A stretch of DNA of 32,000 nt from Vulcanisaeta distributa DSM 14429 (GCF_000148385.1 NC_014537.1:1020001-1052000), one strand, 5' to 3'; positions 5,684 through 20,457 are shown, counted from the first letter of the stretch. Numbers and translations are program-made. Notes: a model not told the origin generated them from the sequence alone.

Positions 5684-6139
5684 CTAGGCATTACCTAAGA
5701 GGTCCTCCTCAGGAAGTATGTTATTTACTGGCTCACCCTCATGTGTTAGGAATTGTATGAGGTTTTTATCCCTAGTTAATAACTTTAGGTTTCTAGTAAC
5801 GGCTGTTGCGTATAGAAGTAGGTCTATTAGGTCATTAAAGCCCTTACGTTTAAGTCTAAGGGCTTTAACGTACCCATCAATTGTTGGTTCGGTAAGTATG
5901 AACTCATCATTTATGACTTTTAACCCCCTCATTACGGTATCCTCATCATAATTAAGCCTAGAAAGCTTGCCCAGGATTTCAATAATATTGTATTGTGTGT
6001 AATAGAACTCAGCCTTAAACCTCCTTCTCATCCTTGATAGTACGATTAGTACCTCATCTATACCCTTAACGTTAATACCCACGATGGGTAGGAGATAAGT
6101 TGTATCAAGAAGTATCCGAGGCCTCACTCCAATACTCAT
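5684..6139 (-). CDS. vapC: PIN-domain ribonuclease toxin VapC
   Basis: Acidic PIN positions appear in order: ILLDTTYLL, NIIEIL, NDLIDLLLYATA, LLTRDKNL. The start is taken at the internal ATG (MSIGVRPRILLD), which overlaps the vapB 3' end. Confidence 0.75.
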   Translation of the reverse strand: MSIGVRPRILLDTTYLLPIVGINVKGIDEVLIVLSRMRRRFKAEFYYTQYNIIEILGKLSRLNYDEDTVMRGLKVINDEFILTEPTIDGYVKALRLKRKGFNDLIDLLLYATAVTRNLKLLTRDKNLIQFLTHEGEPVNNILPEEDLLGNA

Positions 6140-6365
6140 TCTGCATCTCCTCAGATTCCCTCTCAAACTCCTCAAAGGTTACCTCAGCGAACTTTTTAAC
6201 TTTCAAAGCATATTCAAACGGGTCCTCAACACGCTCGATAATTATCTTATTACCATCAACCCTCAAAACAACATAATCACCCTCAGAAATGCCCACAGCC
6301 TCAGAAATCGCCTTAGGTATGTAAATAGTATTCTTTTTAGAAACCCTGACCCTAACCTCCAACAT
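6105..6365 (-). CDS. vapB: AbrB/SpoVT-type antitoxin VapB
   Basis: VSKKNTIYIPKAISEAVGISEGDYVVLRVDGNKIIIE is a single swapped-hairpin AbrB domain, followed by an acidic tail. It lies directly upstream of and overlapping the PIN gene. TTTATAAG lies about 30 nt upstream. Confidence 0.75.
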   Translation of the reverse strand: MLEVRVRVSKKNTIYIPKAISEAVGISEGDYVVLRVDGNKIIIERVEDPFEYALKVKKFAEVTFEEFERESEEMQNEYWSEASDTS

Positions 6366-6429
6366 ACCTTAATCATTAATAATCTGAGCTTATAAACATT
6401 TCTGAGAAACAATTAAATCTCAAAATCCA

Positions 6430-6960
6430 TTAAGCTCTGAATCTTTCAAGCAACTTCATCAACTCACGTTCCTCCTGCTCCAACCTCTCATCCCAAATGT
6501 CCCTGAATAACTCCTTAATTGTTAAGGCCCAACTAACAACCTCAATAATGTCGTCCTTAACCTCGTCAGTGTCCCTATAATCGACTAGGTTTGGGTCGAA
6601 GCCATTATAGGAGAACCTATGAAGTAACAGCGCCGTCTTTACTACGGCCTCCACGTCTATACCCAGTTTCTTTAAGTCCTTAGAAATACCTATTAACCCA
6701 GTGGCTGGTGCTGAGTAACCCACGTTCTCATACCAAGCCCTCCTCCTCTCATCCACCCCTTCAATGATTTTGGCAAAATTCTTAACAACCAACGCGCTGA
6801 CTATGGACTTAGCACTCATGAATGCCTTAGCCGAGGCGTTTTGGATAAGGTCCCTGCCCAGCATCTCCAATGCCAACCCAGCCTCAACCAAGCCATCAAG
6901 GACCTTGGCGTACACATACGCCACGGGATCCCTCTTATAATCTAAGTAACCAACCTCCAC
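6430..6960 (-). CDS. PaREP1-like helical protein (tentative)
   Basis: LIQNASAKAFMSAKSIVSALVVKN and LLHRFSYNGFDP resemble the two signature stretches I recall for the PaREP1 family of Thermoproteales. It starts 21 nt after the HEPN-MNT gene. Confidence 0.4.
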   Translation of the reverse strand: MEVGYLDYKRDPVAYVYAKVLDGLVEAGLALEMLGRDLIQNASAKAFMSAKSIVSALVVKNFAKIIEGVDERRRAWYENVGYSAPATGLIGISKDLKKLGIDVEAVVKTALLLHRFSYNGFDPNLVDYRDTDEVKDDIIEVVSWALTIKELFRDIWDERLEQEERELMKLLERFRA

Positions 6961-6981
6961 ATTGGGAACATCATAGGTCGC

Positions 6982-7788
6982 TTAATAATGCTTTTTAGAA
7001 ATTCTATCCCTAAACACGCTGTAATACACGTGATCCAGGTCAGACTCACCGAGTACCCTAACGTACATGTGAGCAATCAACCTCCGCGCAAGTACTGGGT
7101 CAGCTGAATAAATGAGCACGCCATCCCTCAGTACCACGTATATCAACTCATTGGGCGCCTTACTCAAGTCAACCAAGTCAACCTTATCCACTGGCACACC
7201 GAGTGCCTTCGCCAAATCTCTAATTAAACTAACCATTTTCTCATAATTGGATTGATCCCTCATGAGTACGGCAATATCATAATCACTATCCTCCCTAGCA
7301 TCACCCCTGGCGCGACTACCGAAGAGGAACGCCAACAATACGCCATACTTCGTGAAAACCCTGACAAGCGCCTCGCTGGGTGTCTCTGGATCCACGTTAT
7401 TCTCTTCTACCAACCTTAACAACTGGTTAGCTATGCTGGGCACGTTCTTAAGGACCCAGGACCTCAACTCCAACAGTTCATTCCTACTGAAGGACCTATA
7501 GGCATGGGCAAGCATATTCCTATTAATTGCCACTTGTCTAATCAACTCCTTTACATCATCACCTATTAATCCACGCTCATGAAGCACGTCGGCCAACCCA
7601 GCATAACTGGGAGGTTTCCTAAGACCGAGCTCAGCAACAATCATAGCAATCGCATCAAGTAGATCCTGGTGTACGGCATAGAGCAACCACCTAAGGGCAT
7701 ACTCCCGAAACGCATCATTAATCTCCACTAATCTACTCAAGTCGCTTAACTCCTCATAAACTCTGGAAATCAGCGCCCTAACCTCCAT
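6982..7788 (-). CDS. fused HEPN (DUF86/HepT-like) - minimal nucleotidyltransferase (MntA-like) protein
   Basis: The N-terminal half carries RNMLAHAY (RX4HXY, nt 7521-7498). The C-terminal half carries LFGSRARGDAREDSDYDIAV (GSxxRG...DxD, nt 7320-7267). Confidence 0.8.
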   Translation of the reverse strand: MEVRALISRVYEELSDLSRLVEINDAFREYALRWLLYAVHQDLLDAIAMIVAELGLRKPPSYAGLADVLHERGLIGDDVKELIRQVAINRNMLAHAYRSFSRNELLELRSWVLKNVPSIANQLLRLVEENNVDPETPSEALVRVFTKYGVLLAFLFGSRARGDAREDSDYDIAVLMRDQSNYEKMVSLIRDLAKALGVPVDKVDLVDLSKAPNELIYVVLRDGVLIYSADPVLARRLIAHMYVRVLGESDLDHVYYSVFRDRISKKHY

Positions 7789-7940: not shown

Positions 7941-8831
7941 CTAGCCTTGATAATTAATATAAACAATGCCCCAATTAGCCTGCCCAGCATCATTAGTACC
8001 AGCCACGCCAAATACGTAGTTGCCGCTACCCGGTGGTGTGAAGTAGCCATTTAGACTAAGTGTGAAGCTTGCTGACTGCCCCGTGTTTAAGTCGTATGCA
8101 GTGCCCATTAACGTGTTCGTACTGGGGTTGTAGCTTACCGTAATACATATGTAGTCGCCAGGTCCAGGCTGGAAATAGCCGGTACCAATACCATCCCAAC
8201 CAGAGTAGGGGTTACCTAGATTCGGTGACGGACTTGGGCTGATAGTTACACGAGTTCCTCTACTATTTAAGGCGATCCAGACATTCCACTGCCCACTGGC
8301 GCCGCTGGTTGTGTATGCATATTGCCAGAGCGGGTTCCATTCAATGACGAGGTAGGGTGATGAGCTTTGCGGGAACATTACATCACCCTGCACGGGTGAT
8401 ATCGTGAATGTATAGACATTAGATGAGACGTAGGTTATTGAGTAATTATAACCACTGCCAATGCCCCATCTAGTGGGTCTTAGGAATAGGTAGACTATGT
8501 AGCCATCACCAACGTAAGGATATGCCTGCGATGCCATGGGCGTCCCGTTATTGGAGTATACCCCAATCACGGTTATGGTGATGGTACCGCCGCCATAACT
8601 TTCCTGCCAGAATATGGCGCCTGAAGACCACCCGTAGTTCGAGCTAACCATCTTAAGGATAGGCTGGTTAATGCCTGTCGATATGTAGTACCAGTAGTTG
8701 CTGGGTGAGTTTGAGGAGTCGTAGTAGACGGGCCAGGAATTGGTGGGGTAATACCCCGTGAATGGGTTGCCATAGTCGCCCTGGTATACATGGGGCACGT
8801 ACCAAGTCTGGTAGCCGTCGAGTAGGTTCAT
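7941..8831 (-). CDS. Tyr/Trp/Gly/Asn-rich beta-type protein without its own signal peptide (loosely lectin/ConA-like); last ORF of the surface operon
   Basis: 296-aa ORF. The motif order GDGYIVYLF...LVIEWNP...ICITVSYNPSTNTLMGTAYDL...YVFGVAGTN loosely recalls L-type lectin jelly rolls. The ATG overlaps the upstream stop (TAATG), and no SD precedes it. Confidence 0.6.
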   Translation of the reverse strand: MNLLDGYQTWYVPHVYQGDYGNPFTGYYPTNSWPVYYDSSNSPSNYWYYISTGINQPILKMVSSNYGWSSGAIFWQESYGGGTITITVIGVYSNNGTPMASQAYPYVGDGYIVYLFLRPTRWGIGSGYNYSITYVSSNVYTFTISPVQGDVMFPQSSSPYLVIEWNPLWQYAYTTSGASGQWNVWIALNSRGTRVTISPSPSPNLGNPYSGWDGIGTGYFQPGPGDYICITVSYNPSTNTLMGTAYDLNTGQSASFTLSLNGYFTPPGSGNYVFGVAGTNDAGQANWGIVYINYQG

Positions 8832-9400
8832 TACGTCAGCGCTAGGTGCTTGTATCGTCTCAGTAAATGAGTATATATATATACCACACCCTGCGTTGGC
8901 GTGTAGTTATAAATGCCGCTCAGCGTTATTGGGCTTGTTAATGGGGTGCTTATTGTCAGGTTTTCATAGAGTGTGTAGGTGCCCGTGCTGAGACTTATCG
9001 AGCCAGGGCTTGGGTATATGGGTGTCCCATTAATACTCACACTACTTACGTAATTGTTGTGTCTTATGGCTACCGTTAAAACACCAGCCGCGTATGCCCT
9101 TAAACCAACCAGTGGTGTTGGCACATGAATCACATAACCGCTTGACGTGCTGAGGGTTATCGCGGTTACCGTAGCCGAGAAGCCAGTGTTTGTGTATTGC
9201 CACGAGCTTAAGACACCGCAGCATGGGCATGAGTATGAACCAGTCATTACCGACACCACACTTTTAGCAATCGAATTAGCATTTGCGTAATAAACTATAA
9301 TGACATCGGCAAGTGCAATTGCCGAAGTAACCAATGCCAGCGATAATGCAATAATGAGTAATAGGTTATTCTTCGGCATACTCAACAACCTCAGTACCAC
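8831..9400 (-). CDS. N-terminally anchored Ser/Thr/Tyr-rich surface protein (unknown family)
   Basis: GTG start preceded by GGGAGG (alternative ATG at 9379). TM helix LLLIIALSLALVTSAIALADVIIVY, then a beta-rich body with NGT, NLT and NYT sequons. The last 13 residues are atypically basic. Confidence 0.6.
   Translation of the reverse strand: MVLRLLSMPKNNLLLIIALSLALVTSAIALADVIIVYYANANSIAKSVVSVMTGSYSCPCCGVLSSWQYTNTGFSATVTAITLSTSSGYVIHVPTPLVGLRAYAAGVLTVAIRHNNYVSSVSINGTPIYPSPGSISLSTGTYTLYENLTISTPLTSPITLSGIYNYTPTQGVVYIYTHLLRRYKHLALT
8872..8883. repeat. (TA)6 dinucleotide tract inside coding sequence
   Basis: The plus strand reads g-tatatatatata-c. It lies 41 nt upstream of the ATG at 8831, in the segment where both the upstream and downstream reading frames are open. 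Confidence 0.95.
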
Positions 9401-10136
9401 CCTTCAATGCCTCCCTAATAGACTCATAAATTGCATAGGCCACGGTATCCTCAACGTTGGATCCAGGACTCCCACCGGCTATGACATCGCCCTCAGTCCT
9501 CCGTGATAACAGGATTTTATTGCCCTCGGTCTTAATGAGCAGGTTGCCGACAGCAATGCCATCTGGGGTCTTCGTGTATGGTATACCGAGCCTGTCAAGG
9601 GCTTGTTCTATTGCTGTTGGTGCGCCGTGTTCCTTAACGGCCTCGGCAAGCGACCACCTCCTAAGTCCCAACCACCTTGCCCTGGTTAGCATGTTGAGTA
9701 TGGCTATCGCTGTGGCTACGATTAATACGTAAGTCGGTAAGCCAATGAATGAGTTATGCGGTAATTCAATGTATACGTAACCACTCGGTGTGGGCACTAT
9801 GATAAAGCCCCTCACCTGTAGGTACCTCTGCTGGAAGAGTATGGTGTCTATGAGCATCACCAGTGAGAGCACGGCCAATAAGGCTGACAGGTAAAGCGCG
9901 TAGGCGCTCCTCCTCCAGATAATGAGTATTAGGGCCGAGTCCAGCGCGAAGAAGGACACTAGGTAAACCGTGGGTGGCGGTACCACGTAGGTCACGCCAA
10001 AGAACGTAACTACAAAACCCCAGGGCATCAACCTCAGATAGTAATTACGGCCTGAGACGCCCCAGGCGGGTATGAATAGCCAGGAGACCACGAAGGCAAT
10101 GATCAAGCTAAGAAGTACCAGGACCTCGAGTCTCAT
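9366..10136 (-). CDS. polytopic membrane protein (about 6 TM) with about 100-aa charged C-terminal domain, unknown family
   Basis: Its start overlaps the upstream stop as ATGA, and AGGTGG SD lies 7-8 nt upstream. No peptidase, sortase or transporter motif recognised. Confidence 0.6.
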   Translation of the reverse strand: MRLEVLVLLSLIIAFVVSWLFIPAWGVSGRNYYLRLMPWGFVVTFFGVTYVVPPPTVYLVSFFALDSALILIIWRRSAYALYLSALLAVLSLVMLIDTILFQQRYLQVRGFIIVPTPSGYVYIELPHNSFIGLPTYVLIVATAIAILNMLTRARWLGLRRWSLAEAVKEHGAPTAIEQALDRLGIPYTKTPDGIAVGNLLIKTEGNKILLSRRTEGDVIAGGSPGSNVEDTVAYAIYESIREALKGGTEVVEYAEE

Positions 10137-10933
10137 GACCCACCACCTAACGCAATTACACTACCCAATTGCATATATTGTGTAACATTCCCGTTCGAGA
10201 ATACGTAAGTTACGGTAACGGGCATGTAAAGCACGTAGATAAATCCCTGCTTAAGGTTACAGAAATATACCTGGTTTGCGTACTTCCTAATCGGTATCGT
10301 AATGTTGATGGTGCCGATACCCTGAGGTATGTAAATAGTAATGTTTGGGTTTACGGCGTCAAATACTAGGTAGCCAGGTATGGTATTTTTCGTAAACATG
10401 GAAATTGCCTGAGGCCTAATCATGCCTGGGGTCAATGTTGAATAATTAATACCTATTGTTAAGTTACAATTCTCATAATAGGCATAGGTAATAGTTATAT
10501 TATTAATAACGCGAATTGGCACAACGTCAAAGAACGCAATGTAGGCAGGATCACCATTGAGGTATCCCCTGATCAAACCCCTAACACCCGTATTTGATAA
10601 GGATAGGTACTGTGGGGTTAATGGAAATTGAATAATCATTGTTTCATTATTGGCTATCGTTAAATTACCCACCTGTCCAGTACCGAGCAGTTCCACCCAA
10701 CCACTAATTGGTGTGAAATCCCAATTACCAGGATTAATAATTCTAATAATCACCGTTACACCACTTGCCTGCACATTTATCGACTCAACCTTCGCATATG
10801 GGACGTTCTCCAACGTCATGTAACTCACCAGGGTTGGGGCAACTTGAGACGTGTCCCAAATAAGAATTAAGGCAACCAGGATGGAAAATATGGAAAGGAG
10901 AAGAAATATTTTGAAAGGTGATTTAAAAGCCAC
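10133..10933 (-). CDS. N-terminally anchored, heavily sequon-bearing beta-rich surface protein (unknown family)
   Basis: GTG start preceded by a perfect GAGGTGATC SD. TM anchor FKIFLLLSIFSILVALILIW. At least 8 N-x-S/T sequons. Confidence 0.65.
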   Translation of the reverse strand: MAFKSPFKIFLLLSIFSILVALILIWDTSQVAPTLVSYMTLENVPYAKVESINVQASGVTVIIRIINPGNWDFTPISGWVELLGTGQVGNLTIANNETMIIQFPLTPQYLSLSNTGVRGLIRGYLNGDPAYIAFFDVVPIRVINNITITYAYYENCNLTIGINYSTLTPGMIRPQAISMFTKNTIPGYLVFDAVNPNITIYIPQGIGTINITIPIRKYANQVYFCNLKQGFIYVLYMPVTVTYVFSNGNVTQYMQLGSVIALGGGS

Positions 10934-10940
10934 AACATGA

Positions 10941-11465
10941 TCACCTCGGAACCGGTACGGTGGCGTTAGATACTACGTTGTAACCAAGTAGTACACTCAC
11001 GGTCTCGCTTGTCGAGCTCGTTATTGGGGTGTTGGGTATTACGTACATACTAATGCCATAGTTAGTATTGGCACTTAATGAGCATGGAGCATTACTACTT
11101 GGAGTACTGCCTGGTGCCACATAACCATTGTAGTAGTACGCAGTCCAGGTGCCAGTACTTGTTGAGTACGTAAGTACTATAGTACAGACTATGGCGCTTG
11201 TGCTTGTTATGTCAGTATTGTTCAGATATATGTATAGCGAACTTATTGCTGAAGAGCCTGTACTTGATACCGCATTACCACTAAGCATTGAGGGCACGTA
11301 TAAGTATCCGCTTACAAGCGCCTGTAACACGCCAATATTCACGAAATACGCGCCACTTGAGTTTGTGAGCTCTATGTTAACCTGAAAACCCGCATAGTAT
11401 GGGTTACCATTCGACGTCAGTGGTAGGTCATTTCCTGTGAATGTTACGTACGGGGTTATTGCCAT
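10941..11465 (-). CDS. Ser/Thr/Asn/Tyr-rich beta-type protein lacking signal or TM; possibly the body of a frameshifted gene
   Basis: 174-aa ORF starting inside the 67-aa leader ORF in the +1 frame. No SD upstream. Composition matches the neighbouring surface proteins. Confidence 0.55.
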   Translation of the reverse strand: MAITPYVTFTGNDLPLTSNGNPYYAGFQVNIELTNSSGAYFVNIGVLQALVSGYLYVPSMLSGNAVSSTGSSAISSLYIYLNNTDITSTSAIVCTIVLTYSTSTGTWTAYYYNGYVAPGSTPSSNAPCSLSANTNYGISMYVIPNTPITSSTSETVSVLLGYNVVSNATVPVPR

Positions 11466-11631
11466 TTGGGCCTGTCAGGAATTTCAGCGGTGCAGTCTGT
11501 GAAACACTTATTTGGCCTTGATAAACAAATATCACATCAACCAGCGCTATGGTGGCGATCGCAACGAGCGCTATCGCAGCCAGCATTAACATCCTCCTTT
11601 TCTCGCTCCTTCTCGCAGCCGTGTTGTTCAT
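11428..11631 (-). CDS. 67-aa charged-N-terminus plus single-TM ORF; possibly the detached signal anchor of the next ORF
   Basis: RRSEKRR followed by MLMLAAIALVAIATIALVDVIFVY. First ORF behind the AT-rich promoter region, with TATA-like CTTTTAAG about 30 nt upstream. Its leader motif is shared with the 189-aa ORF. Confidence 0.45.
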   Translation of the reverse strand: MNNTAARRSEKRRMLMLAAIALVAIATIALVDVIFVYQGQISVSQTAPLKFLTGPNGNNPVRNIHRK

Positions 11632-11894
11632 ACCACCACCGTGCTTTAGTGTCGGCTTAAAAGTCTTTCTTTCATTTTCAGATTGATATTGATGTAATTT
11701 AATTGAATTATGTAAAAAGAAAGAGGGCTTCTAGTGGCTATTTATTATATATTTTTAGTCTAGGTTAAATTTAACTTTTTATATTTAAGATGTTAAACTA
11801 CGTATTTTATATTTTCAATTAGTCATCTAGGATACCTTCCTCTTTATAATATTTTTGACGTAATTCTTTTATTAAAAAACGAATTTAATTGCTA

Positions 11895-12221
11895 ATGAGT
11901 AAAGGGCTACCCATTAATAATCTTCCTTACAGGACCAGGGCTTACATTAATAACCAAGTCCTCATCCCAGCTAACTTAGTTAGGGCCCTTGGCATTGAGA
12001 GGGCCAGGTATGCTGACATAGTGATTTCATTCAATGGATTAGTTATTGAGTTGAGGAATGTATTGTTGCTTAGGACTAAGCATACGTCCAGTAGGCAGTT
12101 CACGATTCCTAGGGAGATCAGGGAGCTATACGGGATTAGACCCATGGATCAAATCGAGGTAATCCAAATAAGGCCGAGGTATGTAAAGGAATTTGAGACT
12201 GAACTTACTAGGCCGGTATAG
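11895..12221 (+). CDS. tandem-AbrB/SpoVT-domain DNA-binding protein (putative transcription regulator)
   Basis: Two swapped-hairpin half domains occur in one chain: QVLIPANLVRALGIERARYADIVISF and QFTIPREIRELYGIRPMDQIEVIQI. The maximal ORF starts at TTG 11889, but ATG 11895 is more likely. Confidence 0.6.
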   Translation: MSKGLPINNLPYRTRAYINNQVLIPANLVRALGIERARYADIVISFNGLVIELRNVLLLRTKHTSSRQFTIPREIRELYGIRPMDQIEVIQIRPRYVKEFETELTRPV

Positions 12222-12444: not shown

Positions 12445-13275
12445 CTATTCTATTGAGGATATTGTGGAGTCAATGAGTATGTACATGACGTAGCCCATAA
12501 CCGGTGAATATATGAGTGTGGTTATTATTAAGGCCAGTGTTGGGCTCAGGACTATTGGCCCTAGGTATATGGGTCCTAGTGGTGATAGGGTGATCACAAT
12601 GAGCACGAGGAGTATCGGTAGGAGTAATGCAACGACTAAGTAGATTTCCATGAACAGACCAAGTACTTGGGTCGCACTCCTCAGTCTATTGTACTTGTTC
12701 CTAACTAGGTACTCAAGCTTGAGCATTAGTACGTCGGCCAGGTTTGCACTGATTAGGTATGTCTCGGCTATAAGGCCGAAGATTTCGCCATAGGTCCTTG
12801 ACGGGACCCTGCTGATGCTAGCCCTTAGCGCCGTCAGTATGTCCATACCGCCTTCCCTGGCATCCCTAAGTATTAGCCTAAACTCCCTGGCTATGTATGG
12901 GTCCCTCTCGATGGTGGCTAGGGTACTAATCAACTCCTCAAGGGTAACCCCACTGGCTATCAGTGGTATCATGATCATGAGCGTATTTATTAAGTACCTC
13001 TCGAAGTGGCTTGACCTTATATAGACCTTAGCATTAATGTAAACTAGCACCGATAAGTAATCAATGAGTAGCACAATAACCATAAGGAGCATCACACTCC
13101 TTACTGCACTCATTGGCGTGAGTGCGTAAGCCACCACCAATGCAGCAGCGATTATTGGTGTGTACATGATCACCGCGGCCGCGAAGTCCCTATCGAAGTC
13201 GTAACCGCTGAGTGAGTAAAGTCTATTTACGTAATTATTCACCCAACGCCTATAGGCCGTCAATGGGTTTATCAA
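12445..13275 (-). CDS. half-size type IV filament platform protein (single T2SSF domain, TadC-like)
   Basis: TTG start overlapping the ATPase stop (TTGA), with AGGTGGTG SD. One cytoplasmic helical domain (FERYLINTLMIMIPLIASGVTLEELISTLA...GGMDILTALRAS...) is bracketed by TM helices. Confidence 0.7.
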   Translation of the reverse strand: MINPLTAYRRWVNNYVNRLYSLSGYDFDRDFAAAVIMYTPIIAAALVVAYALTPMSAVRSVMLLMVIVLLIDYLSVLVYINAKVYIRSSHFERYLINTLMIMIPLIASGVTLEELISTLATIERDPYIAREFRLILRDAREGGMDILTALRASISRVPSRTYGEIFGLIAETYLISANLADVLMLKLEYLVRNKYNRLRSATQVLGLFMEIYLVVALLLPILLVLIVITLSPLGPIYLGPIVLSPTLALIITTLIYSPVMGYVMYILIDSTISSIE

Positions 13276-14732
13276 GGCAATTCACCACCTATCACGGCCC
13301 TATAGGTCCTCTCTGGATCAACGTAGTAATTCCTAGTGACCCTAAACACGGCATCGGGCGACCTAAACCCGTACTTGGCCATGGCGGTCATGATCTCAGC
13401 CCTCCTCCTAAGCTCCCTATCAACCTCCTCCTGAGACACCCTGCCCATCCTTACGAGATCTGCAATTAAGGCGCTATCGCTCAACCTGACAAGCTCATCC
13501 CTATCCTTACTCCACCTAAACAGGTTATTAACCCTTAAGCCACTCCTCGTCACATCCAATAACTCGCTAATGTCCGTGACACGCCTAGCAATCCTACCAC
13601 CAATCCTCACCCTATTAATTAGTATGAACACGTTAGCCAGGGGTATTAAGGCTGGAGGAACACTCATGGGCTTGGACAACAGCCTCCTCACGGCCGCGTT
13701 TAGTGAGCTGGCATGTATCGTGGCAAGGCCTGTGTGCCCACTGGCCAACCCCTGAAAGAAGACATAAGCCTCCTCACCCCTTAACTCACCAACAACCAAG
13801 TAATCAGGCCTAATCCTCATGGATACCTTAACTAAATCATAAGCCGTAATATTCTGCACATTGGGTGTTTCGGCCTCCCTAACAACCAATGGAATCCACT
13901 GCTCATGGGGTATGTTTATCTCCCTGGTATCCTCAATAGTCACGATTCTAGCTTCAGGCCTGATTAAAAATAGCAGTGCGTTTAGTAATGTGGTTTTCCC
14001 CGCGCCGGTTGGCCCAATGATTATCATGCTAATGCCATTCTCGAGCATAAACCATAAGGTCGCTAATGCCTCAGCCTTAATAACACCGTCGGTTATTAAG
14101 TCAATGATGGTTATGGGATTAGCCTTAAACTTCCTAATGGTTATTACGGGGCCATGGGGCGAGACATCCCTAAGCCCAAGCTCAACCCTAAGACCCTCAG
14201 GCAGTAAGCCCTCAAGTATTGGGTATGCAGAACTAACGTTCTTACCAACCCTCTGACTAATCTTCACAACGAGACTACTCAACTCATCACTACTCAGGGT
14301 GATATTAGTCCTCAAGTGCTCATACCTACTATGCCACACATAGACAGGCTTGTTGGGCCCATTAATGTTTATATCCTCGATGTAATCATCCTTAATCAGT
14401 GGGTCAACCTTGCCATAACCTACGGTATCCCGCATCAGGTAATACATGACACTCCTCAACTCATCATCATTCAACTTAATCCTCAACCTACCCATTACCT
14501 CATTAACGAGCGATTTAAAGTAATGATCAAGATCATCATTATTAGGCAACGCACTACCCACCCTAAGTAATTCCCTGGCCCTCGCGAGCACCTTGGCAGC
14601 GTTATTGCTGAGTACAGGCTCAACGATGTTGTATAGGTAGAGGCCTGTGTTCTTATCCCTAATAATGAGTACGCCAATCAATCCCTTAACTATTTCGTAC
14701 TCATCGATCAACTCCACACCCTTAATATCCAC
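13272..14732 (-). CDS. type II/IV secretion-family ATPase (FlaI/TadA/VirB11-like) of a type IV filament system
   Basis: Walker A GPTGAGKTTLLNALL, IVTIEDTREI, VVGELRGEEA and the His box GHTGLATIHASS, plus an N-terminal domain of about 200 aa. Confidence 0.85.
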   Translation of the reverse strand: MDIKGVELIDEYEIVKGLIGVLIIRDKNTGLYLYNIVEPVLSNNAAKVLARARELLRVGSALPNNDDLDHYFKSLVNEVMGRLRIKLNDDELRSVMYYLMRDTVGYGKVDPLIKDDYIEDININGPNKPVYVWHSRYEHLRTNITLSSDELSSLVVKISQRVGKNVSSAYPILEGLLPEGLRVELGLRDVSPHGPVITIRKFKANPITIIDLITDGVIKAEALATLWFMLENGISMIIIGPTGAGKTTLLNALLFLIRPEARIVTIEDTREINIPHEQWIPLVVREAETPNVQNITAYDLVKVSMRIRPDYLVVGELRGEEAYVFFQGLASGHTGLATIHASSLNAAVRRLLSKPMSVPPALIPLANVFILINRVRIGGRIARRVTDISELLDVTRSGLRVNNLFRWSKDRDELVRLSDSALIADLVRMGRVSQEEVDRELRRRAEIMTAMAKYGFRSPDAVFRVTRNYYVDPERTYRAVIGGELP

Positions 14733-14754
14733 GGTGTATAATTTCTATCTTGGG

Positions 14755-14799
14755 TTATAAATTTTTAAATTTTAAAACCTTAGATTTATAATTTTTAAA
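14755..14799. promoter_or_regulatory. bidirectional promoter region with two near-identical TATA-like elements
   Basis: TTATAAATTTTTAAA (14755-14769) lies 23-37 nt from the minus-strand ATG at 14732. TTTATAATTTTTAAA (14785-14799) lies about 26 nt from the plus-strand ATG at 14825. Confidence 0.55.
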
Positions 14800-14824
14800 G
14801 AATGGGTAGCAATAAGGTATTAAT

Positions 14825-15733
14825 ATGTATAGGGGGTTTACGCTACGGTTGGTGACTACGGTGATTGTGGTAATCACCATTATTACATTCTACATAATAT
14901 TACCAAAGACTTATGTCCAAGTCAGCATTGGTAAATTAACACTAAGTGTTCCAATACCCTACGGCATACTGGGGACCACGTTGACGGCCATAGCCATCGC
15001 AGCCGAGCTATTGCCACTATCAATCACTGAGTATAGGTTATGGAGGGTGAATAACGAAATACTCGTGGACATGCCCGCGGTAGTTAGGGTGATAAGGGAT
15101 GGCTTAGGTTCGGGTCAACCCCTCGTTGGTGTTGCGGAGATGCTCACTAGGGTTGGTAAGGGTAGACTTGGCAGGATAATTGCCGAGGCCATTACTAAGG
15201 AGAGCATGGGCATAACGACAATGAAGGAGGGCCTCGCCGAGGTTTCGAGGGAGCTTGGCAACAATTACCTGGCGGTACTCGCGGTGATACTTGATACGGC
15301 GATTAGGTCTGGGGCTCGGCTCCAGGAAACCCTCGACATGGCTTACAAATCCCTCGAGGACATGGTAAGCTACCAACTGGAGAAGGCCAACCAGGTTAAG
15401 CCTTACCTAGCCTTGATATACGTGGTCATGGCAATATACGTAGTACTCGCTGGAATAATTATCTACCTAATGATGCCAAGCATAGGTAAAATAGCGATAT
15501 CAACATCAGCAGGGGCAATCACGGCGCCGACAATATCCGTAATAGACACCCAGCTATTCTCATCAATCATAGTAATGAGCAGTGTAATCCAATCAATAAT
15601 CGCAGGCGTGATAATTGGGAGGATTGTCTATGGCAGGTCAATCGTTGGATTACTACACGCATCCATATTAATAATGGTACTCACACTAATTAATTACGTA
15701 ATGTACTTAACAATGTACTTAGGCGTAATATGA
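14825..15733 (+). CDS. half-size type IV filament platform protein (single T2SSF domain, TadB-like)
   Basis: N-terminal TMs, then a cytoplasmic helical domain (ILVDMPAVVRVIRDGLGSGQPLVGVAEML...NYLAVLAVILDTAIRSGARLQETL), then C-terminal TMs. Confidence 0.65.
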   Translation: MYRGFTLRLVTTVIVVITIITFYIILPKTYVQVSIGKLTLSVPIPYGILGTTLTAIAIAAELLPLSITEYRLWRVNNEILVDMPAVVRVIRDGLGSGQPLVGVAEMLTRVGKGRLGRIIAEAITKESMGITTMKEGLAEVSRELGNNYLAVLAVILDTAIRSGARLQETLDMAYKSLEDMVSYQLEKANQVKPYLALIYVVMAIYVVLAGIIIYLMMPSIGKIAISTSAGAITAPTISVIDTQLFSSIIVMSSVIQSIIAGVIIGRIVYGRSIVGLLHASILIMVLTLINYVMYLTMYLGVI

Positions 15734-15769
15734 AACTTAAGTAAATTCAAATCGTAATTGAAAGAAAGG

Positions 15770-15778
15770 TTTATAAAA
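15770..15778 (+). promoter_or_regulatory. TATA-like box for the pilin gene cluster
   Basis: TTTATAAAA preceded by purine-rich AAAGAAAGG, 24-32 nt upstream of ATG 15802. Confidence 0.5.
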
Positions 15779-15801
15779 GATTGAAAATAAATTAGGAATC
15801 G

Positions 15802-16266
15802 ATGACCAGAAATAGAAACAACAGAAAAAGCCTTGGTATAGAGCCAATCGTTGCAGCCATACTACTGATAGTCATAACCGTGGTAGCCGCAGTACTACTC
15901 TACATGTGGTTCAGCGGATACTTATCCGCAACAACAAGTAAGGTTAGCTCAATGGCAACGCCAGAGCAGTTCCAAGTAGTCGCGGCAAGCCTATCAGTAA
16001 GTAAGGGATTGACCGCCTACGTACAGAACACGGGCTCAGTGACAGTAACCATAACGGGCGTCTACCTACTAAACGCAACGAATGGAAACCTAATATGCCA
16101 AGTACCAATAACGGCAACCTCAATAACGCCAGGCTCAACGGTAGCAATCACAAATAGCACAAGCTTTGCATCATCATGCGGCGTAACACCAGGCACATCG
16201 TATGAGCTGCTATTCGTGACCTCAAGCGGCACCAAGTACGCAACGTCTGTTGTGGCATCATCGTAA
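15802..16266 (+). CDS. archaeal type IV pilin-like protein (class III signal peptide, DUF361-like N-terminus)
   Basis: MTRNRNNRKSLG|IEPIVAAILLIVITVVAAVLLY matches the archaeal pilin/flagellin N-terminal pattern (basic region, Gly at -1, about 20 hydrophobic residues). The body is Thr/Ser-rich. Confidence 0.75.
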   Translation: MTRNRNNRKSLGIEPIVAAILLIVITVVAAVLLYMWFSGYLSATTSKVSSMATPEQFQVVAASLSVSKGLTAYVQNTGSVTVTITGVYLLNATNGNLICQVPITATSITPGSTVAITNSTSFASSCGVTPGTSYELLFVTSSGTKYATSVVASS

Positions 16267-16321
16267 ATAATAAAATACATAAGTCATGTTAAGTCAAAAT
16301 CACGCCGCAGGTGATTTTCCC

Positions 16322-16771
16322 ATGATTTCCATTGGCATTAGTGAGGTTGTGGGTGCGACAATACTGCTCGTCATAGCCGTGGCCCTTAGCTTGTTAATCT
16401 TCGGATACTTCTACGGGTACTTAGAGTCGCTTGGTTACTCACTCGCTAATGCACTGTCGGGTTCTTGCGAGTTCTCGATAATGAGCACGGCATTTAACAC
16501 CACGGGCTCCTCAATAACATCAATAAGCATAGCCCTGTACAACTACGGTAATAAGCCGTGCGATATATCCGGCGTATATGTGCTTAATGAATCAACAGTG
16601 TACCAGATAGCCGTGGCAAATAACTGCATAACGAACCCGCTGGCTAGGTTGGGCCCTGGTCAGGTGCTTATGCTCAATTACTCAAACTTAAATATCCCAT
16701 ATAACACAAATTACTTAGTTAAGGTGGTTTCCTGTGATGGGTTCACGGCCGAGGAGGGGCTTGGACAGTAG
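16322..16771 (+). CDS. archaeal type IV pilin-like protein
   Basis: MISIG|ISEVVGATILLVIAVALSLLIF. The start is set at ATG 16322 because AGGTGAT SD lies 8 nt upstream; the maximal ORF begins at 16286. Confidence 0.6.
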   Translation: MISIGISEVVGATILLVIAVALSLLIFGYFYGYLESLGYSLANALSGSCEFSIMSTAFNTTGSSITSISIALYNYGNKPCDISGVYVLNESTVYQIAVANNCITNPLARLGPGQVLMLNYSNLNIPYNTNYLVKVVSCDGFTAEEGLGQ

Positions 16772-18134
16772 GGGATTGGGGGAGCTTTACATAATGGCTA
16801 TAATAATCATGATAGTCATTGTATCGCTCGCTGTAATCTACTCCGTACTCAACGGCTTCAGTAAGTACGTGGCTGAGGAGAAACAATCACTGCAATCCAT
16901 TAGAGGTACAGAGGTGAGCGTTTCATTAAGTGGGTTTAATACTGTGGGTAGTAATTACGTAATTACCATGAAGTTAAGCAATGCCATGCCCCTTAGTAAT
17001 GCTGAAGCCATATGCAGGTATAGCGTGGGTAATGCGCAGTATATGCAGTATTGTAGCTACGTAATTAATGGCGATGTGGTATACGTAACGGTACCAGGCA
17101 CGTTAGTGAATAAGGGGGTGGGTAACCTGGTGGTACTGGTACCAACAGCATCCGGCTTAACGCCAGGCATAAGCCTCTATCGAGGGCCAATAGAGGTTAG
17201 TGTAATAGCACCGCCCGTTGTTTACCAGGGATCAGCGAGCACTGTGGACATCACCGTTCTGCTGATTAATAATTCCACCGGTTGGGTTAATGCCACGGTA
17301 ATAGCCAACGTGAATGGAAATACCATAGCTAATAGTACAATAATGCCACCAAGCGGTGCAGCGGCGACATCAATACCGGTTGGCATAACGAGCGCCGGAA
17401 CCACATCAATACCAATAACGGTGCTTATTAATAATTACACAGAGACCGTACCCGCAGTACAATTAATTGTGCAGCAATCACCAACATCCACAACCACATC
17501 ATCATTACCAGCCACATGCCAAAGCATGGCATTTGGGTACATAGGGAACGCAACAACAAATGGACTACAGAGCTATGTCTACCCTGGAGTTGGTCCAGGG
17601 CTTAGTTACGGCGATGAAGCACTACAAAACAGCGTAATAGATGGCTTCCCCAACCCAATATACACTTACGCCATAGAGACAGGCCCACCACCGCCAAGTG
17701 GGTACACAATCATGTACTATTACAACGTATTTCCCCTAAGCATTAAGGTTGGTAATTACCCAAACGTAACTGCCTACGTATATCCCGTGGACTTCACAAC
17801 GGACGCCATACCCTTCTTCTTCATAGTGACGAATAATCACTACGCAATAGTTATCTATTGGCAGGTGGGCACATCGAGCCCGAGCTCCTTGGCAATAAGT
17901 AATATAGATGCTGGGATAGGGAGCTTAACGGTACCAAACGGCGGCAATATAAAGAAGTTCTTCAATGTAAATGGAGGTACAATACCCATTAACGCCTGGA
18001 CCGGCTATACACTCGATGTAACCAACTACGTTGGTAGTAATGTGGATTACCAATACGTGGGCTTCGGAATATACTTACCAAACACGTCCCAGTCCCAGGG
18101 GCAGTCATACTGGGACTACATATGCATTGGTTAG
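16734..18134 (+). CDS. large pilin-like protein with extra C-terminal domain (candidate minor pilin/adhesin)
   Basis: RGLG|ELYIMAIIIMIVIVSLAVIY class-III-like N-terminus, with AAGGTGG SD upstream. The linker SPTSTTTSS (17478-17504) separates two domains, each holding one Cys pair. It overlaps the previous gene by 38 nt. Confidence 0.6.
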   Translation: MMGSRPRRGLDSRGLGELYIMAIIIMIVIVSLAVIYSVLNGFSKYVAEEKQSLQSIRGTEVSVSLSGFNTVGSNYVITMKLSNAMPLSNAEAICRYSVGNAQYMQYCSYVINGDVVYVTVPGTLVNKGVGNLVVLVPTASGLTPGISLYRGPIEVSVIAPPVVYQGSASTVDITVLLINNSTGWVNATVIANVNGNTIANSTIMPPSGAAATSIPVGITSAGTTSIPITVLINNYTETVPAVQLIVQQSPTSTTTSSLPATCQSMAFGYIGNATTNGLQSYVYPGVGPGLSYGDEALQNSVIDGFPNPIYTYAIETGPPPPSGYTIMYYYNVFPLSIKVGNYPNVTAYVYPVDFTTDAIPFFFIVTNNHYAIVIYWQVGTSSPSSLAISNIDAGIGSLTVPNGGNIKKFFNVNGGTIPINAWTGYTLDVTNYVGSNVDYQYVGFGIYLPNTSQSQGQSYWDYICIG

Positions 18135-19110: not shown

Positions 19111-20457
19111 ATGACCATGATGTACTACAGAATCTATAGGGCTCTTCCCGCGTTATTAATACTGGCAATAATGATAATAATCGCTCAAGCCCACGGCGCC
19201 CATGCAGTACAGTCGATTTACACGCTTCAATCCTTCACGCTAGCCCCCTACGAATGCAATTCCATGCCTCTTAACTGCACCACAGACCTTAGGATAATCC
19301 TAATACCATACTACGCAAATCCATTCAATGCATCCTTGGCCGGCATGCCAAGCCTGAGTAGTTTACCCATTAATTACCCAAGTCAGGGGACTCAGTGGAC
19401 GTTGATTTGGCTCCCATACCCAGCCAGGGCCGGTAATGGTAGTAGGACGTACATACTCGTGAGTAGGGGTACGGAGGACAAACTACTGATATTCCTGGAA
19501 CCCGGTGGTGCATGCACAGACTACTACACCTGTTGGTACCCAGTGCCTGGCGTCAGTACCGTATTGACCATGAACGCTACATACCCAAACATCTGGATCG
19601 ACCTATTCGCGTACACGGGAATTCTCAATAGAAGCAACCCATTAAATCCCTTCAGGAACTGGACGTACGTATTCATACCATACGATACAGGTGATGTATT
19701 CTCTGGGGATAGGGTCATGGAGTACTGCGGGATTGGCATTAACGGCATGATGGACTGCGTGACGACATATCACGTTGGTTTTGTCGATGCGATAATGGCA
19801 ATGAGGTGGGCAGCAGCCCAGGGACCCTGGAAGCAGGTGGTCCTCGCTGGATCAAGCGCCGGTGGCGTGGGTACGATATTACTATCATACTACGCAGTAC
19901 AGATATTTAATGATTCGCACCTAATTGTAATTGACGACTCAGGGCCTGGTCTCACGTCAACCGTCAATCCACACTTCACCTTTGAAACCACGGAACAGAG
20001 TTGGGGCTATCTTGAATTAATGACTCCGGAGGCACGTGAGATTGTTGAGGAGACAGGCGAGCCGCTGCTCGGCCTTGAGTATGAATTCCAAACAATTGGC
20101 AAGAACGTCACATTTGCGCTTTATGAGATGCAGGAGGACCTTGTCATGGGCACGTTATTCCTAGGTTACACACCCAGTGAGTATCAACAGGTCCTACTTT
20201 ACTACACTGGGAAGCTTAGGCAGTTTGCACCAAACAACTTCTTTAGGTACCTACCCATTGGCTACGCGCACATGATCCTGGTATACCCAGTCCTACTTCC
20301 ACCCAATGCCTTCTACACCTTCAGTATCTGTGGATTGCCTGTATATGAGTGGGTAGATTTATTACTCGAGGGTAAGCCGATCGACATAGTCCAGGTAACG
20401 CCATACACCTGTGTCATTAACTCCACGCAGATAGTGAGCAACATATCGCTTGGGTAG
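19111..20457 (+). CDS. secreted alpha/beta-hydrolase of the pectin acetylesterase / Notum family
   Basis: Signal peptide ALPALLILAIMIIIAQAHGAHA. Ordered motifs EPGGACTDYYTCW (cf. GGGWC), LAGSSAGGVG (nucleophile elbow as in Notum/PAE) and VIDDSGPG (cf. DAGFF). About ten N-x-S/T sequons. Confidence 0.6.
   Translation: MTMMYYRIYRALPALLILAIMIIIAQAHGAHAVQSIYTLQSFTLAPYECNSMPLNCTTDLRIILIPYYANPFNASLAGMPSLSSLPINYPSQGTQWTLIWLPYPARAGNGSRTYILVSRGTEDKLLIFLEPGGACTDYYTCWYPVPGVSTVLTMNATYPNIWIDLFAYTGILNRSNPLNPFRNWTYVFIPYDTGDVFSGDRVMEYCGIGINGMMDCVTTYHVGFVDAIMAMRWAAAQGPWKQVVLAGSSAGGVGTILLSYYAVQIFNDSHLIVIDDSGPGLTSTVNPHFTFETTEQSWGYLELMTPEAREIVEETGEPLLGLEYEFQTIGKNVTFALYEMQEDLVMGTLFLGYTPSEYQQVLLYYTGKLRQFAPNNFFRYLPIGYAHMILVYPVLLPPNAFYTFSICGLPVYEWVDLLLEGKPIDIVQVTPYTCVINSTQIVSNISLG

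Follow-up and report, generated by a model that had tools for sequence, protein, structure and literature searches.

We analysed a stretch of 32,000 nucleotides (nt) from Vulcanisaeta distributa DSM 14429 (GCF_000148385.1, NC_014537.1:1020001-1052000), termed the window below, and concentrated on an operon on its minus strand at positions 7941-11631. The operon consists of six open reading frames (ORFs): A (11631-11428, 67 amino acids, aa), B (11465-10941, 174 aa), C (10933-10133, 266 aa), D (10136-9366, 256 aa), E (9400-8831) and F (8831-7941, 296 aa), which in GenBank are separate hypothetical proteins (ADN50467-ADN50472). With a probability of about 0.85 we take it to be the archaeal thread gene cluster as it occurs in V. 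distributa DSM 14429, in which four genes appear as six ORFs due to two frameshifts. Threads are a filament type known since 2022 (Gaines et al. 2022, PMC9715654). They are thin, heavily glycosylated filaments of the cell surface that are exported via Sec and independent of type IV pili and of the peptidase PibD, and their subunits are joined by donor-strand complementation via an N-terminal strand (PMC9715654).

The layout given in the initial annotation was correct with respect to the coordinates of the six ORFs and to their junctions, which are a 38-nt overlap of A and B, a 7-nt gap between B and C, a 4-nt overlap of C and D (ATGA), a 35-nt overlap of D and E, and a 1-nt overlap of E and F. 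The D/E overlap shrinks to 14 nt when E starts with the ATG at 9379, as in GenBank entry ADN50468, and this is the likely start. For C, GenBank uses a start that yields 228 aa (ADN50470). A conserved transmembrane region precedes that start, which supports the longer 266-aa frame with a GTG start. As had been noted, the products are poor in charge and rich in Ser, Thr, Asn, Tyr and Gly. We counted 8 N-x-S/T sequons in the 266-aa product of C, 4 in A plus B and 5 in E plus F. Upstream of A an AT-rich intergenic region (11632-11888) is shared with a divergent AbrB-type gene and presumably holds the promoter. Reading of the sequence located a TTTTAA box about 25 nt upstream of the ATG of A, with GGTGGTGGT just before the box or the ATG.

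The six ORFs are four genes, AB, C, D and EF, rather than the six initially described, and AB and EF are each split by a frameshift. In AB (10941-11631) a +1 frameshift generates the 67-aa and the 174-aa ORF by an extra C in a CCCC run at 11452-11455. Removal of one C restored an intact ORF of 229 aa, in which ...GPNGNNPYVTFTGND... agrees with ...GPNGNNSYVTFTGND... of P0203, an intact 229-aa relative with 77% identity. A and B share one frame in three Vulcanisaeta loci (L004, L007 and L009), and AB is intact in all relatives with lengths of ~190-230 aa. In EF (7941-9400) a +2 frameshift is due to one surplus TA within the (TA)5 run of positions 8874-8883, and removal of one TA restored an intact ORF of 485 aa. 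EF is likewise intact in all relatives, at ~460-485 aa. Homologs of F span 100% of F, yet mostly are ~450-485 aa long, and their N-terminal halves align with E. The F frame still encodes YIYSFTETIQAPSADV upstream of the ATG of F in agreement with ...Y.YSF.ETI..PSA.V of the orthologs. In the orthologs this peptide is encoded by sequence that has no TA tract, and the tract is thus lineage-specific. Both lesions were identical in contigs from three independently assembled read sets. A fusion of A and B had been suspected earlier, that of E and F had been missed. Because A and B as well as E and F are single genes, the 38-nt and 1-nt overlaps are scars of frameshifts and not signs of the translational coupling that had been proposed for the operon. 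Genuine close junctions are only the gap between B and C, the ATGA overlap of C and D and the overlap of D and E. The annotation of ADN50467-ADN50472 as six hypothetical proteins is thus corrected to four genes, two of which are disrupted.

Programmed ribosomal frameshifting was judged unlikely, since neither site has a slippery heptamer and relatives do not share the TA tract. The lineage-specificity of the tract also led us to reject a conserved phase-variation device.

The AB frameshift leaves the signal peptide with the donor strand in A and the head domain in B. The AB allele of this strain therefore is not an intact, export-competent subunit gene, while the family assignment is unaffected. 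With both strand-donating genes frameshifted at simple repeats thread production in this strain is doubtful, and slippage of the repeats to their former length would probably be required before the locus could yield a thread. We consider it an even call whether the operon is a decaying pseudogene cluster that has lost its function in V. distributa DSM 14429, with the six ORFs as annotation debris. Two independent frameshifts in two key genes, found alike in the assemblies of three read sets, argue for decay, as does a lineage-specific TA tract that provides no conserved switch. Furthermore, Saci_0407/0408 of the Sulfolobus acidocaldarius thread cluster is also split in strain DSM 639 (bioRxiv 10.1101/2022.04.26.489512). 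On the other hand, C and D are intact, and the downstream portions of the two split genes, 174 codons in AB and 296 in EF, contain no further stops and are 77-83% identical to intact relatives. Any inactivation is thus recent, or it is reversible at C4 and (TA)5. Decay in any case concerns the state of this strain and not the identity of the operon.

The identity of AB emerged from a profile of six sequences, the repaired gene of the window and five orthologs. Against PDB sequences it produced exactly two matches, 7PNB (E=2.8e-24) and 8RZL (E=1.4e-19), both of which are the S. acidocaldarius thread subunit Saci_0406. Profile positions 9-193 aligned with residues 2-195 of chain 7pnb_A, i.e. over nearly the full length. 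Searches of A to E as single sequences in Pfam, NCBIfam and PDB sequences had returned nothing significant, and thus the homology became visible only with the ortholog profile. By these alignments AB qualifies as a homolog of the structurally solved Saci_0406 (family arCOG10215), and the statement that the operon has no assignable family no longer holds. The signal-peptide cleavage context and the donor strand are common to both proteins, LVA/DVIYYYQGQI in Saci_0406 and IALV/DVIFVYQGQI in AB, with D32, V33, I34 and Y37 invariant in the AB alignment. A corresponding sequence, IALA/DVIIVYYAN, begins E. The N-termini of AB and E thus appear to be signal peptides of the Sec/signal peptidase I type that end before an Asp and are followed by an aromatic-rich donor strand.

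In Acidilobus-type orthologs of the thread subunit and of EF (L017:4849-5415, L018:471-1046 and P0017) the predicted cleavage site is followed by Asn or His in place of Asp (A/ANVIFVYQ, A/AHVIFVYQ and MA/HLVFVYQ). The N-terminal Asp that has been proposed to form an Asp-Asn isopeptide bond consequently is not universal in the wider family.

EF starts with a signal peptide and the donor strand DVIIVYY, continues with a thread-like domain (E) and ends in a lectin-like domain of ~290 aa (F). In hhalign the E domain matched the thread family with 98% probability (E=1.4e-13), which makes it a thread-family paralog. The F domain was modelled with AlphaFold2 in the intact ortholog P0002, based on an alignment of 94 sequences. 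The predicted local distance difference test (pLDDT) score was mostly 82-96 over the last ~150 residues, and lower and patchier in the first half of the domain with means of 51-92 in blocks of 10 residues. A Foldseek search of the PDB with this model had legume L-type lectins as all of its top 50 matches (E down to 1e-7, probability 1.00) with target-normalised template-modelling scores of 0.5-0.62. The model thus predicts a concanavalin-like jelly-roll of the L-type lectin fold, in line with the earlier impression of a lectin-type jelly-roll in the last ORF. Pfam returned weak, partial matches in the F family, PA14 in 69 and Lectin_L-type_dom in 15 of 94 members, and also GLEYA. The 15 matches to PF18483 were below threshold with a best E of 0.0058. 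F of the window itself scored a partial 23.3 bits with PA14, just below the cutoff of 24, and P0002 scored 26.6 bits, but covered only positions 24-72 of the 147 profile positions. The PA14 and GLEYA matches fall into a C-terminal stretch of 45-49 residues. The fold search favours L-type lectins over PA14, and we assign a putative L-type lectin fold. F-like domains also stand alone behind other anchors, for instance a zinc ribbon with a transmembrane segment or a C-terminal transmembrane segment. Examples are Thermocladium P0090, the metagenome protein P0067 and copies in Caldisphaera and Marsarchaeota loci. In our homolog searches the F domain was confined to Thermoproteota-type archaea.

The two middle genes of the operon code for membrane-associated proteins. 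C (10133-10933, minus strand) is predicted to be an N-terminally membrane-anchored all-beta protein, and profile, tblastn, position and topology point to Saci_0407/0408, which is fused as SUSAZ_02080, as its counterpart. A C profile built without Sulfolobus sequences matched the 276-aa SUSAZ ORF with E=5e-9 over profile positions 7-252, and tblastn gave 2e-4. Gene position and topology of C are conserved across loci. Neither the single sequence nor the family profile of C matched Pfam or the PDB, and hhalign revealed no relation between the C and thread families (probability 0.6%).

D (9366-10136, minus strand) is a polytopic membrane protein with a soluble C-terminal domain of ~100 aa. This charged domain, which we infer to be cytoplasmic, had been described correctly, while the 'about 6' transmembrane segments of the initial annotation were too many; the Kyte-Doolittle plot displayed four hydrophobic blocks, which we read as ~4-5 segments. 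D corresponds to a 266-aa S. acidocaldarius membrane protein encoded beside the thread genes, with E=7e-25 in tblastn and 3e-33 for a profile without Sulfolobus sequences. The family is tiny, as a search of 1.84 billion proteins yielded 26 representatives at E<=0.001, and as with C no Pfam or PDB match was obtained with the single sequence or the family profile. It contains no invariant Ser, His, Cys or Asp, a pattern that makes a role of D as scaffold more likely than an enzymatic one.

The D ortholog, presumably Saci_0409, is called with 266, 215 and 226 aa in three S. acidocaldarius strains (L013/L014/L015, about 5830-6630). Together with the split Saci_0407/0408 these length variants indicate that in two genera strains from culture collections appear to have thread-cluster genes that are disrupted or differ in annotation.

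For the comparison of the whole operon the sequence of Saci_0406 was rebuilt from the PDB alignment and used to obtain the S. acidocaldarius locus. The tags Saci_0409, Saci_0407 plus 0408 and Saci_0404 were assigned from the order of SUSAZ_02075/02080 and the text of the paper. The reference cluster, Saci_0404-0409 (PDB 7PNB and 8RZL; PMC9715654), has a homologous major subunit with the cleavage context L-x-A/V followed by D-V and an aromatic donor strand. In the publication an LVA/DV cleavage and co-occurrence with 0405, 0407 and 0408 are described (PMC9715654). The protein two genes downstream of Saci_0406 has 442 aa (Saci_0404); F alone matched it with 3e-15 and a full-length EF profile with 5.7e-28. 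The direct upstream neighbour of Saci_0406 is the anchored 276-aa protein that matches C. The window therefore contains, besides the major subunit, likely homologs of the neighbouring genes, D for what is presumably Saci_0409, EF for Saci_0404 and, as a weak match, C for Saci_0407/0408.

The arrangement differs in that AB-C-D-EF of the window are on one strand, while in Sulfolobus 0409 on the minus strand is followed by 0407/8, 0406, 0405 and 0404. Further differences are the frameshifts in AB and EF, the missing separate cap gene of the Saci_0405 type and, in Vulcanisaeta, a type IV pilus locus as neighbour of the module. The 'cap' Saci_0405 has 131 aa and is a weak paralog of the thread subunit. 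Conservation of the gene neighbourhood, the check that had been proposed for the operon, was evident from the order AB-C-D-EF in three Vulcanisaeta and three Caldivirga loci. The four-gene layout also occurs in an Acidilobus metagenome-assembled genome and in one metagenome contig, in both of which the two middle genes have diverged beyond the reach of our profiles. The association of the four genes extends over three or more orders of the Thermoproteota, among them the Sulfolobales, Thermoproteales and Acidilobales. Caldivirga sp. MU80 has two complete thread modules on different contigs (L005 and L006), only one of which is near type IV pilus genes.

The operon of the window is neighboured by a type IV pilus-like locus at 12445-18134. 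On the minus strand it comprises a FlaI/PilB-type ATPase (13272-14732) and a half-size TadC-like/T2SSF gene (12445-13275). A second half-size TadC/T2SSF gene, recognised by Pfam T2SSF, is on the plus strand (14825-15733). It is followed by three ORFs (15802-16266, 16286-16771 and 16734-18134) that had no Pfam match, but have pilin-like N-termini by inspection and are candidate pilins. The ORF at 15802-16266 contains a class III-like junction, RKSLG/IEPIV. The initial annotation had suggested an adhesion, matrix or filament module. This direction was right, whereas the proposed role as an accessory of the pilus locus was not. If AB, C and EF were the accessory or pilin set of this pilus machine, they would be assembled by the ATPase and the TadC-like platform at 12445-13275. 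The ATPase-TadC pair does adjoin the thread operon in three Vulcanisaeta loci from different species. In one of them (L004) both point in the same direction, only ~190 nt apart and with no intervening AbrB gene, and in Caldivirga the module of L005 is within ~6 kb of pilus genes. Yet, AB and EF lack a class III motif and have Sec/signal peptidase I-like N-termini. Inspection of AB, C and EF detected no [KR]-[GA] junction before a hydrophobic stretch, which agrees with the earlier statement that a class III pilin signal is missing. Furthermore, the pilus locus is equipped with its second TadC-like gene and its own three candidate pilins at 14825-18134, and the four-gene module exists without type IV pilus genes in L006, L008, Acidilobus L018 and S. 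acidocaldarius. In addition, S. acidocaldarius threads form without PibD (PMC9715654). We regard a function as pilus accessory as very improbable. Because the pilus locus has its own candidate pilins and the module occurs without pilus genes, the thread operon is best described as a filament operon in its own right that, like the Sulfolobus cluster, stands apart from type IV pilus systems.

How the products may work together can be outlined as follows. AB would be exported via Sec, cleaved before the Asp and N-glycosylated, and would polymerise head-to-tail, the N-terminal strand of every subunit filling in the beta-sheet of its neighbour. The donor strand of EF would dock into the acceptor groove of AB, which would place EF at one end of the filament with the carbohydrate-binding domain exposed. 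A distal position is favoured, where EF would most likely serve as a FimH-like tip adhesin or as nucleator. EF is thus probably a terminal adhesin. C would be unable to donate a strand because its N-terminal helix anchor is not cleaved, and may serve as a base or chaperone-like acceptor for the subunit nearest to the membrane, with D as a membrane platform.

EF might also act at the other end, as a cell-proximal terminator or anchor, its donor strand filling the last basal groove and its lectin domain binding the glycosylated S-layer of the own cell. Archaeal S-layers are heavily N-glycosylated. If growth resembled that of chaperone-usher pili, N-terminal strands would point away from the cell and a strand-donating terminal subunit would be situated at the base. 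The polarity of thread filaments has not been established (PMC9715654). However, EF has no membrane anchor once the signal peptide is cleaved, and the membrane-anchored C would be the more natural base. The stand-alone lectin domains of P0067 and P0090 carry transmembrane anchors of their own, which suggests that outward binding is the job of the domain. We consider the basal position less likely, though a real alternative, and prefer EF as a distal tip subunit.

Several points weigh against the assignment of the operon to the thread clusters and against the functions derived from it. Threads in V. distributa are predicted here from the genes, and with both subunit genes disrupted their function in DSM 14429 is doubtful. 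AB has Val directly ahead of its predicted cleavage site, a position occupied by Ala in relatives. A cap paralog of the Saci_0405 type was not found within the window. The link of C to Saci_0407/0408 is weak (30 bits), the AlphaFold2 single-sequence model of C was unusable with a pLDDT of 43, and the middle two genes of Acidilobus escape the C and D profiles and are positional analogs only; the roles of C and D are conjecture. The lectin assignment of the F domain relies on a predicted fold, and the F family had no significant match to solved lectins in searches of PDB sequences. Finally, either polarity of threads may apply, and the end nearest to the cell would suit EF equally well.

Among the remaining neighbours the AbrB/MazE-type SpoVT domain gene (11889-12221, plus strand) separates the TadC gene from the thread operon, to which it is divergently oriented. 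It could regulate either neighbour. An AbrB gene is present in L007 and L009 and absent at the matching position in L004. Downstream of the operon there is a patch of toxin-antitoxin and repeat-family genes (5684-7788) with a fused HepT-MntA protein of the type VII toxin-antitoxin class at 6982-7788, a PaREP1 family protein at 6430-6960 and a PIN-domain protein at 5684-6175, beside which the Logan gene call adds a MazE-like gene. Near the surface-structure loci, at 19111-20457 on the plus strand, a 448-aa secreted protein with many N-glycosylation sequons has a match to the pectinacetylesterase family (PF03283).

The thread subunit has been assigned to the TasA superfamily (PMC12518558), whose members are filament proteins with a jelly-roll that donate strands. 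The superfamily filaments comprise the archaeal bundling pili AbpA, the cannulae CanA/CanX and bacterial TasA. Within it the thread family is a distinct branch with <20% identity to AbpA and CanX (PMC12518558). Type 1 and P pili of the chaperone-usher class (FimA/FimH, PapA/PapG) are similar in that subunits are linked by donor strands and a two-domain subunit joins a pilin-like and a lectin domain in order to adhere via sugars. In contrast to these systems the thread host has no outer membrane, and searches of C and D in Pfam and PDB sequences returned no chaperone or usher homologs (the fold model of C having a pLDDT of 43). EF would also differ from FimH in its architecture, with the lectin domain C-terminal to the pilin-like domain and the donor strand retained, whereas in FimH the lectin domain comes first and a donor strand is missing. 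Moreover, the predicted fold of EF is an L-type jelly-roll and not the FimH fold. We do not claim a membership in the chaperone-usher class. Compared with legume L-type lectins the F domain is alike in its predicted fold (Foldseek E of about 1e-7); unlike solved lectins, it has ~290 aa with extra loops and no significant sequence similarity.

The thread family of these ORFs was known, because E (WP_013336193.1) and B (WP_013336196.1) have been listed as potential thread-subunit homologs in 2025 (PMC12518558). New in relation to the literature searched is that both entries are fragments of frameshifted genes, that the whole operon corresponds to Saci_0404-0409, and that the EF/Saci_0404 family ends in a domain with a predicted lectin fold. 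In the thread literature the roles of Saci_0404, 0407 and 0408 are termed "elusive", and in the papers searched neither a role for Saci_0404 nor a lectin is mentioned. Taken together the data may be read such that threads possess a dedicated terminal lectin adhesin (EF/Saci_0404), and that a Thermoproteota-specific machine of C and D assembles and anchors them in place of the bacterial chaperone and usher. The C4 and (TA)5 tracts might then be reversible switches, and the adjacency in Vulcanisaeta might reflect a coupling to the type IV pilus ATPase. In its entirety we offer this reading tentatively, as a possibility that is more doubtful than secure. EF, with a thread-like subunit and a domain of predicted lectin fold, is a concrete candidate, open to testing, for the end by which the filament adheres, and C and D as small thread-specific families are obvious candidates for the missing assembly machinery of threads.

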